From Escherichia phage ECCR664: a stretch of 64,000 bases of DNA. Positions 3,941 to 62,168 of the stretch are shown piece after piece. The stretch lies in sequence record OL631257.1; one strand, given 5' to 3'. Position numbers and translations under genes: made by a program. The notes below the pieces were generated by a model. The model did no database searches and had not been told where the DNA came from. It was given only the letters and a program-made list of their open reading frames with translations. The first letter of the stretch is position 1; every line of letters starts with the position of its first letter.

Positions 3941-4940
3941 TTATTTCAGTAAAGTTACTTCGGAGATTTCCTCCCAACCATCTTTATCAGTTGAAATAAA
4001 ATCTGCTACATAAAGAGCCGTACGTAATGATACATTGCGAAGACGAGATACGTTAGCCTTCATCCAGGACAATGCTTTGTACGTTTCAGCATCAGTCAGA
4101 CCACGTTTCTGCATCATGTCAGTAGATAATATTACATCTTCAACTCGAACCATAATCTCTTCATTAGAGTGTACTCCAAGGTCGAGATACACTGAACGAG
4201 ATACTAAAGCTTGAAGGTGTGGAGCAAGTTTCGAACCACGTTCTAACTCTTTATCGATATCAACGTTTGTAATGAAAACGATAGTACCTTCAAACTCAAA
4301 TTCTTTATCAATACCCTTATCATCAAGATAAGATGACGCAGTGCTCCAACAAACTTTGCGTTTATCTCCGGTATCTAATGCTGCTTTAAGAAGGTTCAAG
4401 ATATCCATATCAGAGAATACATCAACATCGTCGATTAAGAGAACGCTGTCTGCATCACGGTTGAGCCAAAGTTGTTCGTAAAGGCCAATACCAGAGATTT
4501 TACCATTAATGCTTTTGTATTTGATGAAGCCATTATCATTAGCACTATTAAGTGCTTTATCCAGAGAATACGTCTTACCAATACCGGCTGCACCTGAAAT
4601 AATGAGTGAACGAATTTTGCCATCGATAATGCCATTCGTCATCATGTTCATTACTTTAAAGCGTTTGTTGATGCGAGTTTTCATATCTTCAGTGCTTTCA
4701 ACAACTGCAACTGGTGATGTCTCAACTCCTTCCATTACGATGTCTGATTTGAAGACCCATACTCCACGTTCAGAACCATCAATCATAACGAAAATTTTAC
4801 CATCACCTAAGTGGGAACATTCAGGATTAAGCTTTGCTGGGAACCAGGTCTTTGTGGCGACATAAGAACCAGAGATTTCGTTATTACGATAGATACCTTT
4901 TGATTTGAACGTTGAACATTTTATTCTCCAATTTACTCAT
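3941..4940 (-). CDS. P-loop ATPase (AAA-like), N-terminus apparently frameshifted
   Basis: Walker A GAAGIGKT, Walker B LLIDDVD, downstream FITN sensor-like motif in ORF 3941..4786; open frame continues upstream to ~4940. Confidence 0.55.
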
Positions 4941-22759: not shown

Positions 22760-23424
22760 TTTGTTTTCCTCTTGATTTGATGTGATTACTATAACATAAA
22801 CTTACTTAGATGTAAATTATTTCAACGTCACCTTTAGCGGCTTTATAACCTTCAGCCCAAGATACAACAGAGTTTTTATCTGAGGATTCAAATTCAGGCA
22901 TTGGACTTTCACCAATATTCACACAGTATGTTTCTTCATTTTCATCGAACCAAATAATTAAAGTAGTCATTTTGTTTACTCCTTTGTAGTTGATAAGTCT
23001 ATAGTATCACCATCCTTGGTGCTTGTACATCATTATTTTAATTTTTCCAACTTAACAACTTGTAGTATCCTTCATTCGTACGTGGTTTATCCCAAAAATA
23101 CTAATATATGATTCGCTGTCAATAGAAGTCGCCGGGTTTTTCTCTACCGTAAGACCTTCACTTTCCAGCCATTCAATAGTATTTGCGCATAAATCAGAAG
23201 AACACCTCATCGGGAACCGGCAAGATTTTTCACCTTTAGCTGCAGTGTTATACATCTTTTCTAAAATACGCTTTTGCACGTTTTTAAAAATAGTTTCAGC
23301 AGATTCTTCAGATTTTTATTCAGTTCAGTGTAAAGACTCATACTATTCTCCTCATGTTTTAATAGGACTATAGTAACACATCCAGGGAAGAAGTAAACAA
23401 CTTTTTCAGTAAGTTATAGACCCC

Positions 23425-56464: not shown

Positions 56465-57276
56465 ATGATCAAAGAACAACTTTTGAAAGAAGCTCAGAAC
56501 ATCGAGACTTCAGTTGCTCTTAATAGTGTTTTCGAATCAGTAGAACTGTCTCCGGACGTTAAAGCTAATTTCAGCACTGTATTCGAAGCCACCGTTAAGC
56601 AGGAAGCAGTCAAACTGGCTGAATCTCATATCAAAGCCATCGCCGAAAAGGCTGAAGAAGAAGTTGAAAAGGCCAAAGAAGATGCTGAAGAGAAAGCTGA
56701 TAAAAATTGGCTGAACAAGCTTCTAAATTCCTAGACCATCTTGCAAAAGAATGGCTCACAGAAAACCAAATCGCAGTTGATAAAGGCATTAAAGCTGATT
56801 TGTTTGAATCCATGCTTGGTGGTCTGAAAGAACTGTTTGTTGAACATAACGTTGTTGTTCCAGAAGAATCTGTAGATGTTGTAGCAGAAATGGAAGAAGA
56901 GCTGGCCGAACATAAAGAAGAAACCGCTCGTTTGTTCGAAGAAGTTACCAAACGTGATGCATATATCAATTACGTTCAGCGTGAAACCGCTATTAATGAA
57001 AGCGTAAAAGACCTGACTGAATCTCAGAAAGAAAAAGTTATTGGCCTGGTTGAAGGTATGGATTATTCTGACGCATTTGGTACTAAGTTAACTGCTATTG
57101 TAGAAATGGTTAAAGGTTCTACTAAAGAAGAAGCCGCTATTACCGAAAGTATAAATACAGTTGACAATGACGCTGCCGGTCTTAATTTTGTTGCCGAAGC
57201 AGTTGACACTACCACAACTCAGGTAGAACAGAATTCTAATGTAAGTTTATATGCGAAAGTCGCATCTCGTTTCTAA
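56465..57276 (+). CDS. 22: prohead core scaffold protein gp22 (one frameshift at A-run ~56702)
   Basis: two fragments of 89 + 189 aa, acidic coiled-coil protein; position. Confidence 0.9.
57150..57157 (+). promoter_or_regulatory. late promoter TATAAATA inside gp22 3' end (gp23)
   Basis: exact motif ~140 nt upstream of gp23 start. Confidence 0.5.
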
Positions 57277-57293: not shown

Positions 57294-58862
57294 ATGACTA
57301 CTATCAAAACTAAAGCTCAGCTCGTAGACAAATGGAAAGAACTGCTGGAAGGTGAAGGCCTGCCGGAAATCGCTAATAGCAAGCAGGCTATTATCGCTAA
57401 AATCTTCGAAAACCAGGAAAAAGATTTCGAAGTATCCCCTGAATATAAAGACGAGAAAATCGCTCAGGCATTTGGTTCTTTCTTGACCGAAGCTGAAATT
57501 GGTGGTGACCACGGTTATAATGCTCAGAACATCGCAGCAGGTCAAACCTCTGGTGCAGTAACCCAAATTGGGCCGGCAGTTATGGGTATGGTTCGTCGTG
57601 CTATTCCTAATCTGATCGCTTTTGATATTTGTGGTGTTCAGCCTATGAACAGCCCGACCGGTCAGGTATTTGCTCTCCGTGCAGTATATGGTAAAGACCC
57701 TATCGCTGCTGGCGCTAAAGAAGCTTTCCATCCGATGTATGCCCCAGACGCGATGTTCTCTGGTCAGGGTGCTGCTAAGAAATTCCCAGCTCTGGCTGCT
57801 GACACTACTACTGTTGTAGGTGATATCTATACTCACTTCTTCCAAGAAACTGGTACTGTATATCTGCAAGCTTCTGCTGTCGTAACACTTGATTCTAGTG
57901 CAACTGATGCAGCTAAATTAGATGCAGAAGTTAAGAAACAAATGGAAGCCGGTGCACTGGTAGAAATCGCTGAAGGTATGGCTACTTCTATCGCTGAACT
58001 CCAGGAAGGTTTCAACGGTTCTACCGATAACCCATGGAATGAAATGGGCTTCCGTATCGATAAACAAGTTATCGAAGCTAAATCTCGCCAGCTGAAAGCT
58101 GCTTACTCTATCGAATTAGCACAAGACCTCCGTGCAGTACACGGTATGGATGCTGATGCTGAACTGAGCGGTATTCTGGCTACAGAAATTATGCTAGAAA
58201 TCAACCGTGAAGTTGTTGATTGGATTAACTACTCAGCACAGGTTGGTAAATCTGGTATGACCCTGACTCCAGGTTCTAAAGCTGGTGTATTTGACTTCCA
58301 GGACCCGATTGATATCCGTGGTGCTCGTTGGGCCGGTGAAAGCTTTAAATCTCTGTTGTTCCAGATTGATAAAGAAGCAGTTGAAATTGCTCGTCAAACC
58401 GGACGTGGTGAAGGTAACTTCATTATCGCTTCCCGTAACGTAGTTAACGTACTGGCTTCAGTTGATACTGGTATTTCTTACGCTGCACAGGGTCTGGCTT
58501 CTGGTTTTAATACCGACACTACTAAGTCTGTATTTGCCGGTGTACTTGGTGGTAAATACCGCGTATATATCGACCAGTATGCTAAACAGGATTACTTCAC
58601 CGTTGGTTACAAAGGCGCTAACGAAATGGATGCAGGTATTTACTATGCTCCTTACGTTGCACTTACCCCACTGCGTGGTTCCGATCCTAAGAACTTCCAG
58701 CCGGTAATGGGCTTTAAAACTCGTTACGGTATCGGTGTTAACCCGTTTGCTGAAAGTTCCCTGCAGGCTCCAGGTGCTCGCATCCAGTCCGGTATGCCGT
58801 CTATCCTGAACAGCCTTGGTAAGAACGCTTACTTCCGCCGTGTATATGTAAAAGGCATCTAA
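57294..58862 (+). CDS. 23: major capsid protein gp23
   Basis: intact 522-aa ORF closely matching T4 gp23 throughout. Confidence 0.98.
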   Translation: MTTIKTKAQLVDKWKELLEGEGLPEIANSKQAIIAKIFENQEKDFEVSPEYKDEKIAQAFGSFLTEAEIGGDHGYNAQNIAAGQTSGAVTQIGPAVMGMVRRAIPNLIAFDICGVQPMNSPTGQVFALRAVYGKDPIAAGAKEAFHPMYAPDAMFSGQGAAKKFPALAADTTTVVGDIYTHFFQETGTVYLQASAVVTLDSSATDAAKLDAEVKKQMEAGALVEIAEGMATSIAELQEGFNGSTDNPWNEMGFRIDKQVIEAKSRQLKAAYSIELAQDLRAVHGMDADAELSGILATEIMLEINREVVDWINYSAQVGKSGMTLTPGSKAGVFDFQDPIDIRGARWAGESFKSLLFQIDKEAVEIARQTGRGEGNFIIASRNVVNVLASVDTGISYAAQGLASGFNTDTTKSVFAGVLGGKYRVYIDQYAKQDYFTVGYKGANEMDAGIYYAPYVALTPLRGSDPKNFQPVMGFKTRYGIGVNPFAESSLQAPGARIQSGMPSILNSLGKNAYFRRVYVKGI

Positions 58863-58887
58863 TCTTAATTGATTAAATCTTATTTTG

Positions 58888-58915
58888 GGAGACTTCGGTC
58901 TCCCATTTTTGGTTT
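58888..58915 (+). terminator. rho-independent terminator after gp23
   Basis: GGGAGAC-TTCG-GTCTCCC followed by ATTTTTGGTTTT. Confidence 0.8.
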
Positions 58916-59184
58916 TATTTCTGTGCAATTTCGATGTAAGTTTTCAAAATATTTTGCCAATTAGGCATACCTTCTTGGACATATGCTGGAGAACCGTCTT
59001 TGTTTTTGAATGATGCAAGTTTATCAGTGGCCCAATAACCTTTAGCTCGAGCTTCAGAATCAACTTTCATCCATACTTTGTTGAAGGCATTACCATTAAC
59101 TTTTGCACCATATTTTTCTACTAACTTAACTGCTTCAGCTTCTAGAACTTTTAAAGTATCTCGTAAGAAACGTGCTTTAGTCAT
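58915..59184 (-). CDS. hypothetical protein (89 aa) in the gp23-gp24 intergenic position, with its own early-promoter motif
   Basis: ORF MTKARFLRDTLKVLEAEAVKLVEKYGAK…; promoter motif at 59200-59245; no GIY-YIG or HNH motif. Confidence 0.5.
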   Translation of the reverse strand: MTKARFLRDTLKVLEAEAVKLVEKYGAKVNGNAFNKVWMKVDSEARAKGYWATDKLASFKNKDGSPAYVQEGMPNWQNILKTYIEIAQK

Positions 59185-59199
59185 TTTGTTTACTCCTCT

Positions 59200-59245
59200 G
59201 TAGTTGATAAGTCTATAGTATCACATACCAAATACGTTGTAAACA
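59200..59245 (-). promoter_or_regulatory. early promoter motif upstream of the ORF between gp23 and gp24
   Basis: GTTTAC at 59239-59244 (minus); GATAAGTCTATAGTATCAC element as in other copies. Confidence 0.5.
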
Positions 59246-59250
59246 ATCTT

Positions 59251-59258
59251 TATAAATA
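59251..59258 (+). promoter_or_regulatory. late promoter TATAAATA (gp24)
   Basis: exact motif ~27 nt upstream of gp24 start. Confidence 0.6.
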
Positions 59259-59284: not shown

Positions 59285-60567
59285 ATGAGTAAAATCCAAA
59301 AATTATTGCGTGAATCTACAACGTCTACTAGCAACTCAATCGGTCGCCCAAATCTCGTTGCTTTGACTCGCGCTACGACTAAATTAATATATTCTGACAT
59401 TGTGGCAACACAAAGAACTAATCAACCTGTTGCTGCTTTTTATGGTATTAAATATCTTAACCCAGACAACGAATTAACATTTAAAACTGGTGCTACTTAT
59501 GCCGGTGAAGCTGGATATGTAGACCGAGAAAAAATTACCGAGCTCACAGAAGAATCAAAAGTCACACTAAATAAAGGCGATTTTTTCAAATATAATAATA
59601 TCGTCTATAAAGTGTTAGAAGATACACCGTTTGCAGATATTCAGGAAAGTGATCTAGAATTAGCTCTTCAGATTGCGGTCGTTCATTTAAAGGTACGGCT
59701 ATTTTCAGATGCAGCGGTAACAAGCAAATTTGAAAGCTCTGGTAGCGAAATTTCTGATGCAAGATTCCAGATTAATAAATGGCAAACTTCAGTCAAATCT
59801 CGTAAACTTAAAACCGGCCTCACGGTTGAATTAGCGCAAGATTTGGAAGCGAATGGATTTGATGCCCCTAACTTCTTAGAAGATTTGCTTGCTACTGAAA
59901 TGGCTGATGAAATTAATAAAGATATTCTTCAGTCTTTAATTACTGTATCGAAACGTTATAAAGTTACTGGAATTACTGACACCGGATTTATTGACTTGAG
60001 CTATGCGTCTGCTCCGGAAGCAGGTCGTTCGTTATATCGAATGGTGTGTGAAATGGTATCACACATTCAAAAGAGTCAACTTATACTGCAACGTTTTGCG
60101 TAGCTTCAGCTCGTGCAGCTGCTATTCTTGCTGCTTCGGGTTGGTTAAAACATAAGCCGGAAGATGATAAGTACCTTTCACAAAATGCTTATGGATTCTT
60201 GGCAAATGGATTACCTCTTTACTGCGATACCAACAGTCCGTTAGATTATGTTATTGTGGGTGTTGTAGAAAATATCGGCGAAAAAGAGATTGTAGGGTCC
60301 ATCTTTTATGCTCCATACACTGAAGGAATGGATTTAGACGACCCGGAACATGTCGGTGCATTTAAAGTTGTAGTTGATCCGGAAAGCTTACAACCGTCTA
60401 TAGGTTTATTGGTTAGATATGCTTTATCAGCAAATCCTTACACAGTAGCAAAAGATGAAAAAGAAGCTAGAGTAATTGATGGCGGGGACATGGATAAAAT
60501 GGCAGGACGTTCAGACTTGTCTGTTTTACTCGGTGTTAAATTGCCTAAAATTATTATAGATGAATAA
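59285..60567 (+). CDS. 24: capsid vertex protein gp24 (one frameshift at A-run ~60069)
   Basis: two fragments totalling ~427 aa; gp23-like fold expected from position and size. Confidence 0.9.
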
Positions 60568-60570
60568 ACG

Positions 60571-60596
60571 AAAAAGGGACCGTAAGGTCCCTTTTT
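60571..60596. terminator. bidirectional terminator between convergent gp24 and rnlB
   Basis: AAAAA-GGGACC-GTAA-GGTCCC-TTTTT. Confidence 0.75.
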
Positions 60597-60600
60597 CTTG

Positions 60601-61597
60601 TTATGATACTAATTCAATCCATGCAGGACGCAGAACATCTTGCACCATTCGGACTAATTCTTTCTTAACAAGACTCGGGTCATCGGATGATGTTAATACA
60701 ATACCTTCACGAGAAGTTTCTTCCAGAATATCTTGAACAGTCAATCCCATCACTTTGCCAAAATCTTTTGGCGTTACTGTCCCAATCTTAGAAATCACAT
60801 TGTTAACACGATTTAATGTAACATAACAAGCTAGAACATCAAGCAAGTTTTTGTCAATTTCGGTTAATGGAACCTGAGTTTTAATAGGCTTATCAGACTT
60901 TTCTTTTCACTGAATTTAGAGTTCTTGCACTTAATAGCTACACGAGTACCGTTTGGCAGCCATTTAGGAAACAAGGCTTCAGAACATAACCTTCTGCCGT
61001 ATTATCACCAATAACATTAGCATCAAATACACAATTATTTGCTTCGACAAGGTCTTCTGACGCAGTAGCATTATAAGCGGCTAAGACGGAATCAAGGTCA
61101 TTTGGAATCATGATAAGAGAATCAAATGTTCCACGACCAAGCATTGGTGCCATTTTAAAACCAAATTCATTACAGAAATCTTGCATTTCGTAATCGGTCA
61201 AATACGTATTATCACCACTTTCTGTATTGATAATGATATCGAACACATAAAAATCTTTTTCACCGTAGTCAACACCTTTCTGGATTCCACCACCAGCGAA
61301 TTCACCGAATACTTGATATGATACGGCTCGAGCTGTGTACATGAATTCCTGAACGGCTTTAATAGCTTTATCATACTTCTTGAGTACGATTTCATAACCG
61401 TAAAAATCTTCTGCTGGAAGAATAGGGCCTGTGCGCTTGGCGCATGTGACGTTGTCACGTTCAATAATTAAACTAAAGTTGGTCCCATGGATTTTCTCAC
61501 GTGCTACCCAAACACCAGTAGTCAAACCATTAGTGTAGAGTTTTTCAATAAACTTAGAGTTGTAGTGGTTTTCAAGACTGCTGTATTTCTTAAACAT
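60601..61597 (-). CDS. rnlB: RNA ligase 2 (RnlB), frameshifted
   Basis: [21 protein letters not shown]…[18 protein letters not shown] (ligase KxHG motif) and C-terminus …VISKIG…[18 protein letters not shown]… match T4 Rnl2. Confidence 0.9.
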
Positions 61598-61985: not shown

Positions 61986-62168
61986 TCAAACGTTTACGGT
62001 ATACAACTTTTCTTTTGCTTTAAACTTTGACCGAGCTGTCTCGGCTTTAGTCCATAGTAATCCAACTTCTTTAGGTTGTAAACCAATTTTTTGAGCAATT
62101 TCTACGAATGAAAATCCCGCCTCATGTAATGTATAAACTTCAACTTCAGCTCTCATAATCAATCCCAT
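61986..62168 (-). CDS. small protein, possible helix-turn-helix (T4 24.3 position)
   Basis: ORF 60 aa …EAGFSFVEIAQKIGLQPKEVGLLW…. Confidence 0.35.
   Translation of the reverse strand: MGLIMRAEVEVYTLHEAGFSFVEIAQKIGLQPKEVGLLWTKAETARSKFKAKEKLYTVNV

Follow-up and report, generated by a model that had tools for sequence, protein, structure and literature searches.

The spacer between the major capsid gene (gp23) and the vertex protein gene (gp24) of Escherichia phage ECCR664 contains a minus-strand unit made of a predicted T4-type early promoter, an 89-aa ORF and a hairpin. Comparison of the locus among T-even phages shows that this predicted promoter-ORF-hairpin unit is ancestral and is not a recent insertion. 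The comparison also shows that the coding sequence is an exchangeable module, which occurs as allele type A (that of the window) or B and whose type is uncoupled from the flanks. The homing endonuclease gene segD is found in the same slot in some of these phages.

The small antisense gene and its signals

The source phage is a Mosigvirus, an RB69/JS09-like T-even coliphage, and the window analysed here is the whole 64,000-nt stretch taken from its sequence record (OL631257.1). A preliminary description of the window had placed a minus-strand 89-aa ORF between the gp23 terminator and the gp24 late promoter, antisense to the late structural operon. This arrangement was confirmed, and the ORF has its own predicted early promoter on the minus strand between the two genes (Table 1). 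The intact ORF is the longest one within the 422-nt gp23-gp24 spacer, and an ORF as long as 89 aa appeared in only 104 of 20000 shuffled spacers. The spacer was found with at least 90% identity in 144 phage records, in 142 of them with at least 95%, and the small ORF is carried in 239 records.

Table 1. Positions in the window of the small gene, its signals and its flanks
Feature	Position	Strand	Remarks
gp23, major capsid protein (flank)	57294..58862	plus	
Exchanged tract, A form (window) versus B+segD form (mobillu, LF82-1)	58835..59192		96-99% identity outside
Hairpin TGGGAGAC-TTCG-GTCTCCCA	58886..58905	both	common to the convergent gp23 and small-ORF transcripts
89-aa ORF, MTKARFLRDTLKVLEAEAVKLVEKYGAK...	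58915..59184	minus	ATG start; stop codon 58915-58917; from the ORF list
47-nt segment (-10 box, 5'UTR, SD, ATGAC)	59178..59224	minus	near-copy at 22964-23010
8-nt inverted repeat TTGTTTAC/GTAAACAA	arms 59186-59193 and 59239-59246		brackets the early promoter
Shine-Dalgarno (SD) GAGGAG	59193..59198	minus	8 nt upstream of ATG; GGAG core conserved in relatives
Early promoter, T4-type (predicted)	59215..59244	minus	-35 GTTTAC 59244-59239; extended -10 TG-A-TACTAT 59223-59215
gp24 late promoter TATAAATA	59251..59258	plus	from sequence; so annotated in SA79RD; invariant in 7 lineages
gp24, vertex protein (flank)	59285..60567	plus	start 59285

The predicted early promoter is near consensus (GTTTAC-N14-gtga-TACTAT, with the -10 box TACTAT at 59220-59215 on the minus strand). 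By its sequence it belongs to the T4 class of the GTTTAC(N14)gtggTAttaT type, and it is correctly placed before the SD and the ATG, with a 5'UTR of about 24 nt. In the relative SA79RD, the promoter of the small ORF is annotated as an early promoter. Where 0.85 matches to the pattern GTTTAC-N18-TANNNT would be expected in the window, 12 are found, and the minus strand has all of them; 10 of the 12 are in the early region (0.8-27 kb), and the remaining 2 are isolated in the late block, one of them being the small-ORF promoter. The other isolated motif (GTTTAC...TACTAT, 62054-62083, minus strand) lies upstream of the 24.3/24.2/rnlB group. The small ORF is thereby predicted to be expressed early. 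The late promoter TATAAATA points away from the early promoter on the opposite strand, with 6 nt between it and the -35 box.

The hairpin begins 10 nt past the stop codon of the small ORF. Its folding energy is -14.8 kcal/mol on the plus strand (z -3.8) and -13.5 kcal/mol on the minus strand (z -4.9). The canonical form of an intrinsic terminator (cUUCGg loop and U-tract to about 58915) exists only on the plus strand, which is the gp23 strand. Since the minus strand has no U-tract, a stop of the early transcript at the hairpin is only putative. The hairpin is conserved in Mosigvirus and Dhakavirus, and in VR20 its place is taken by another hairpin with a different sequence.

An early-promoter/inverted-repeat cassette at 59200-59245 had also been proposed. 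The promoter part of this proposal holds, but the repeat, although present, is weak. The 8-nt arms lie slightly outside the proposed interval, the RNA fold of the repeat around the promoter is marginally above chance (z -1.9), and the UTR arm is absent in the metagenomic contigs L013 and L011 and in all B-type loci. The inverted repeat around the early promoter is probably incidental. A known RNA element at the locus was ruled out, as all matches in an Rfam scan were far below the gathering scores and a tRNA search gave none.

Single bases are missing in the window, compared with FP43 and SA79RD, at 56701, 60068, 60898, 60966, 61699, 61976, 62007 and 62247, all in homopolymer runs (A5 to A4, T5 to T4, G3 to G2, C4 to C3). 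Such deletions break gp22 (56465-56734 and 56707-57276), gp24 (1-nt deletion at 60068; 59285-60103 and 60199-60567) and rnlB (60938-61597 and 60601-60846), and these breaks are almost certainly sequencing or assembly errors. Between gp24 and rnlB, an inverted repeat at 60567-60602 gives a reverse self-match in blastn and is annotated as a bidirectional terminator in SA79RD.

Ancestry of the unit and exchange of its coding sequence

Six further loci were compared, from Gaprivervirus VR20, Dhakavirus VR5 and 04086, and three divergent metagenomic T-even contigs (L011, L013 and L014). All of them carry the small gene in antisense orientation between gp23 and gp24, and its start is 100 nt from the gp24 start in all six. 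When the spacers of seven lineages including T4 were aligned, the gp24 start codon, TATAAATA and the AAAATG at the ORF start were invariant, and so were the -35 box (G/A)T(T/G)TACA and the extended -10 element (TG-n-TA-n-TAT) of the early promoter. The 17-nt spacer of this promoter varies freely in sequence at a fixed length. The unit keeps the same place and geometry in at least three Tevenvirinae genera and its predicted promoter is invariant even in T4, which indicates that the unit is ancestral to several T-even genera. Within each allele type, the divergence of the ORF tracks or lags behind the divergence of the flanks. A tandem duplication of gp24 (two vertex-protein paralogs) was observed in VR5, VR20 and the 173-kb metagenomic phage L011 (837-3401; L002; L003).

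The A and B allele types are about 30% identical to each other. SA79RD (A) and mobillu (B), which are both Mosigviruses, are 99% identical in gp24 and 32% identical in the ORF, and the metagenomic L011 (A) and VR5 (B) are 95% identical in gp24 and 25% in the ORF. The reverse situation is seen for 04086 (Dhakavirus) versus mobillu (Mosigvirus), with only 67% identity in gp24 and 99% amino acid identity (97% nucleotide identity) in the ORF.

The edges of the exchanged tract were located by comparing the window with mobillu. From gp24 through both promoters and into the 5'UTR, ending some 8 nt short of the ATG, the two are 96-98% identical. The alignment resumes at the stop codon, with lower identity over the hairpin spacer and the last ~30-60 nt of gp23, and deeper into gp23 the identity of 98-100% is regained. 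The blastn break points are 59193 and 58918, and the crossover of LF82-1 is a few bases further down than that of mobillu, between the SD and the ATG. At the 3' end of gp23 (58835-58860 versus 4490-4515 of locus L008), 8 of the last 9 codons differ between the A/segD- and B/segD+ Mosigviruses, by silent changes only. These changes do not track segD strictly; some are also found in the segD-less L014, and for this reason a SegD recognition site is not claimed for them.

The 47-nt segment covering the -10 box, the 5'UTR, the SD and the first bases of the ORF is present a second time in the window. The copy is identical at 46 of 47 positions by blastn, and a pattern search gave 2 matches in the window against 0.00 expected. 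It precedes an unrelated 54-aa ORF (MTTLIIWFDENEETYC..., 22806-22970, minus strand), and its -35 region is different. The repeat is a possible trace of, or substrate for, recombination of promoter cassettes of the PeSL type.

PeSLs are the promoter-early stem-loop plus ORFan cassettes of T4-type phages (Arbiol et al. 2010, PMC2839356; Comeau et al. 2014, PMC4122927), and the crossovers of their shuffling were mapped to the interval from the -10 box to the SD/ATG (PMC2839356). The unit between gp23 and gp24 has the same composition of a strong predicted sigma70-type early promoter, an SD, a small non-essential ORFan and a stem-loop terminator. Its ORF is likewise replaced between close relatives with crossovers from the -10 box to the ATG (~59193 for mobillu; SD-ATG for LF82-1), and its -10/UTR block is repeated elsewhere in the window (22964-23010). 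In contrast, the composite element of PeSLs, in which a stem-loop stands immediately upstream of the promoter, is absent, and the gp24 late promoter is found there instead; because of the missing upstream stem-loop, the full PeSL architecture is not present. A strong hairpin occurs only after the ORF, in common with gp23; the locus belongs to the conserved head module and not to a hyperplastic region; and one crossover falls inside the essential gene gp23. The preliminary description had taken the gene for a cassette-mediated insertion. Its cassette part is borne out by the two sets of crossovers, those between the -10 box and the ATG and those at the hairpin/gp23 3' end, and its insertion part is contradicted by the presence of the unit in at least three genera.

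Comparison with T4 confirmed the statement in the preliminary description that T4 has segD in this intergenic position. T4 SegD is a free-standing GIY-YIG homing endonuclease, and its gene shares with the small ORF the slot, the antisense orientation and an upstream promoter sequence. In some Mosigvirus and Dhakavirus phages, the small ORF and segD are adjacent in one unit. The A allele alone was found in the window, SA79RD, FP43, L011 and L013, and the B allele alone in VR5, VR20 and L014; in mobillu, LF82-1, JM10 and 04086 the B allele is followed 3 nt later by segD, and in T4 and FL34 segD is alone. SegD proteins at least 80% identical to that of mobillu were found in about 38 records. As segD lacks a separate SD and follows the B allele at a distance of 3 nt, it appears to rely on the unit for transcription and probably for translation. 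In 04086, the 223-aa segD ORF after the B-type ORF (L004 2771-3442) is unannotated, and gp23 (L004 3502-5061) is annotated at 1110 nt, truncated relative to the 519-aa ORF present.

The small protein and SegD are different in kind. The small protein has 89 aa versus about 220 aa, it has no GIY-YIG or HNH motif, as had been noted in the preliminary description, and no Pfam match was above threshold. When it was compared with Mosigvirus and T4-type SegD by hhalign, the probability was 0.3-0.9%, and the small ORF as a degenerate Seg domain was rejected.

T4 segD was described as the only endonuclease gene that is antisense to its neighbours, and no promoter was identified for it (Edgell et al. 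2010, PMC2988022). A promoter-like sequence, ATTTACA-N17-(TG)-TATTAT, is found upstream of segD in T4 (L017 333-372) and FL34 (L010 2433-2472), and the T4 sequence TTTACA-N17-TATTAT, with its TG, is orthologous in position to the early promoter of the small ORF. The simplest reading is that segD joined a pre-existing antisense early unit and that the T4 lineage lost the small gene. Modification of the ancestral unit best accounts for both the segD-only state of T4 and the B+segD state.

The small gene is dispensable, as shown by its absence in T4 and its disruption in RB69 and mogra. In the RB69 copy (L007 4292-4532), codons 16-22 are scrambled and 1 nt is deleted, and the annotation divides this copy into RB69ORF188c and 189c; the copy of phage mogra is split; the disruptions in these two phages could partly be sequencing errors.

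The protein family and its possible role

The coding signal of the ORF in relatives had been named in the preliminary description as a point to examine, and the opposite of a missing signal was found. By the Nei-Gojobori method, restricted to within-type pairs with unsaturated dS, the dN/dS within allele types is 0.03-0.15 (for example, dN 0.057 and dS 0.52 for the ORFs of VR5 and mobillu, and dN/dS 0.15 for the window versus L011). This strong purifying selection within allele types indicates that the small ORF is a genuine protein-coding gene.

The 89-aa protein is a full-length member of PHROG 6003, which is annotated as 'function unknown' (phrog_6003, E 2.1e-45, residues 1-89 on profile positions 1-90 of 90). 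The identical sequence is recorded for 262 contigs, each time under the name 'hypothetical protein', and relatives of the protein are annotated as 'similar to VR7 gp190'. The database entries PHROG 6003, VR7 gp190 and RB69ORF188c+189c represent the family of the window protein itself, which all sources give as 'hypothetical'. One relative in L011 (P0006, 3501-3773, 90 aa) has the JGI label 'NADPH-dependent curcumin reductase CurA', which is evidently an annotation error.

A-type proteins are 61-99% identical to the window protein, B-type proteins about 30-37%, and a third group from non-T-even phages about 30-35%. The length is conserved at 84-93 aa across the family, and seven positions (M1, K3, F6, G31, N32, N35 and Q70) are invariant in all subfamilies. 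An [N/H]-G-N-x-x-N motif stands at the start of helix 2. The window protein has a pI of 9.6 and a net charge of +5.5, and all subfamilies are basic (pI 9.5-9.8, net charge +4 to +5.5). AlphaFold2 predicted one topology, helix-helix-beta-hairpin-helix, for the A type (pLDDT 90.2; H3-25, H31-48, E56-60, E66-70, H76-88) and for the B type (pLDDT 92.6; H3-25, H31-48, E52-61, E67-71, H77-87).

Scans of A, B and rV5-type members against Pfam, NCBIfam and PADLOC gave scattered and inconsistent sub-threshold matches only. In Pfam, no helix-turn-helix (HTH) or winged-helix match was found for the family, and DUF4859 was rejected with 17.9 bits (E 0.003), below its gathering threshold of 22.6, being matched by only 2 of 10 family members. 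A profile search over 1.84 billion representatives returned 10 matches. P0017 (Big_2 repeats, 9 stretches) and P0020 (a eukaryotic repeat protein, 8 stretches) were discarded as repeat-summed artefacts of about 9 bits per stretch, and P0021 was discarded as a chimeric fragment. A widened profile, to which the rV5-like and siphovirus members were added, gave no named relative. Only some 20 clusters, all of small phage proteins, came from 5.8 billion sequences, and the family is narrow and phage-only. Structure searches gave a similar picture. The best Foldseek match in the PDB had an E of 0.3, with very weak similarity to the DnaD-N and ORC2 winged-helix domains (probability 0.11-0.15), a search of BFVD returned the own family only, and the sequence profile against the PDB gave nothing below E 0.1. 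The small ORF is mentioned in no paper found in the literature search, and the protein is absent from the supplementary sequences of Silas et al. (bioRxiv 10.1101/2023.04.06.535777).

Outside the T-even phages, homologs were found in other gene neighbourhoods. In the 'Acinetobacter' phage ABPH49 (Vequintavirinae), the homolog is within a run of small same-strand hypothetical genes, with no obvious matching promoter/terminator cassette. In an rV5-like contig it is in a block of small early-type ORFs, and in a siphovirus-like contig it follows just after a GpJ-type tail-tip gene, bordering replication genes. These rV5-like and siphovirus-like contexts indicate that the function is portable among phage types and unrelated to gp23 and gp24.

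On balance, the slot is best explained as holding an ancestral, exchangeable early unit that encodes a host-directed binder. The unit is self-contained and faces the late head operon, with a predicted T4-type early promoter, a leader with SD, the 89-aa ORF and the hairpin. Two ancient allele types, A and B, have been swapped between otherwise near-identical phages, probably by recombination in the conserved promoter/5'UTR at one edge and in the hairpin and the final ~30 nt of gp23 at the other. The segD gene would have lodged in the antisense unit after the B allele, and in T4 it would stand in place of the small gene. The protein would be made in the first minutes of infection and would be a non-enzymatic binder of a host component, serving as a counter-defence or host-takeover factor. 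Taken by itself, this functional step is tentative and is drawn by analogy. It is suggested by the predicted early promoter, the small size, the dispensability and the horizontal mobility of the gene, by the deep allelic dimorphism with strong constraint within each allele, and by the variable content between core genes. According to Silas et al. (bioRxiv 10.1101/2023.04.06.535777), most of the content of phage accessory regions consists of host-directed or anti-defence genes. The slot resembles these regions in its variable content of early, non-essential and horizontally exchanged small genes, flanked by conserved core genes; the phenotypes of Silas et al. (counter-defence or trigger) are experimental, whereas no phenotype is on record for the small protein. 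A slightly more speculative version of the host-directed reading takes the protein as a new early effector with an orphan fold, for counter-defence or takeover, of which A and B may be alternative specificities circulated by recombination and segD-linked transfer, the unit itself being an ancestral 'landing pad'.

The main rival is a phage-directed regulator, in which a small basic nucleic-acid-binding protein would tune transcription or translation of the phage or the host soon after infection begins. This is rather doubtful. The basic character of all subfamilies (pI 9.5-9.8, net charge +4 to +5.5) fits such a protein, and the helix-helix-beta-hairpin order is compatible with a winged-helix-like binder of the DnaD-N or ORC2 kind. 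However, these fold matches are not significant, Pfam gave no HTH or winged-helix match, and the homologs in unrelated phage types argue against a T-even-specific regulatory target. The same homologs, found in non-capsid contexts, weigh against a role in the capsid, such as controlling gp23/gp24 expression or assembly at an early stage, perhaps by transcription that runs antisense into gp23. The fixed position between both capsid genes would suit this role, and read-through antisense to gp23 is conceivable from the convergent early transcript and the minus-strand hairpin that has no U-tract. It is nevertheless the most improbable of the alternatives, as the protein sequence itself is under selection, and heads are made by T4, which has no such gene, and by RB69, which has a broken copy.

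The two other rivals concern the origin of the gene. A recent cassette-mediated insertion of a promoter-equipped ORFan in the lineage of the source phage is unlikely. It could draw on the clearly exchangeable coding sequence and on the early promoter and the 47-nt -10/UTR block repeated elsewhere in the genome, but the unit is at the equal position and gp24 distance in Mosigvirus, Dhakavirus, Gaprivervirus and divergent metagenomic T-even phages, its promoter is conserved in T4 despite the missing ORF, and the within-type divergence of the ORF tracks or lags behind that of the flanks. That the small gene belongs to the segD mobile element, as a cofactor, a regulator, a degenerate domain or a carrier of the expression signals of the endonuclease, is very unlikely. 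The close junction of segD with the B allele, the absence of a separate SD and the use of the same slot by segD in T4 agree with this idea. In contrast, the hhalign probability against SegD is below 1%, and most carriers have no segD (239 ORF records versus about 38 with a mobillu-type SegD). The rV5-like and siphovirus homologs have no seg genes nearby, and the protein is under strong purifying selection in segD-less phages. The ancestral exchangeable unit, into which segD would have entered later, is preferred to all of these alternatives.

Meaning for the T-even phages

The feature is an ordinary accessory gene, an ORFan with an early promoter, in an exchange slot that resembles PeSLs. Hundreds of genomes already list it as hypothetical, and the current understanding is not overturned by the findings on the gp23-gp24 slot. 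What they provide is an account of this slot in T-even phages, as an ancestral antisense early unit whose coding sequence was swapped, joined or replaced by segD. The 3' end of gene 23 is identified as one edge of the exchanged tract, and a candidate promoter for T4 segD is pointed out. If the landing-pad reading is true, the unique antisense orientation of T4 segD and its unidentified promoter (PMC2988022) would be explained. If the guess about the function is true, the small protein would add to the small effectors of phages, with a fold that has no match. Natural pairs of phages that are nearly isogenic but carry the A or the B allele (gp24 99%, ORF 32%) offer a handy experimental handle.
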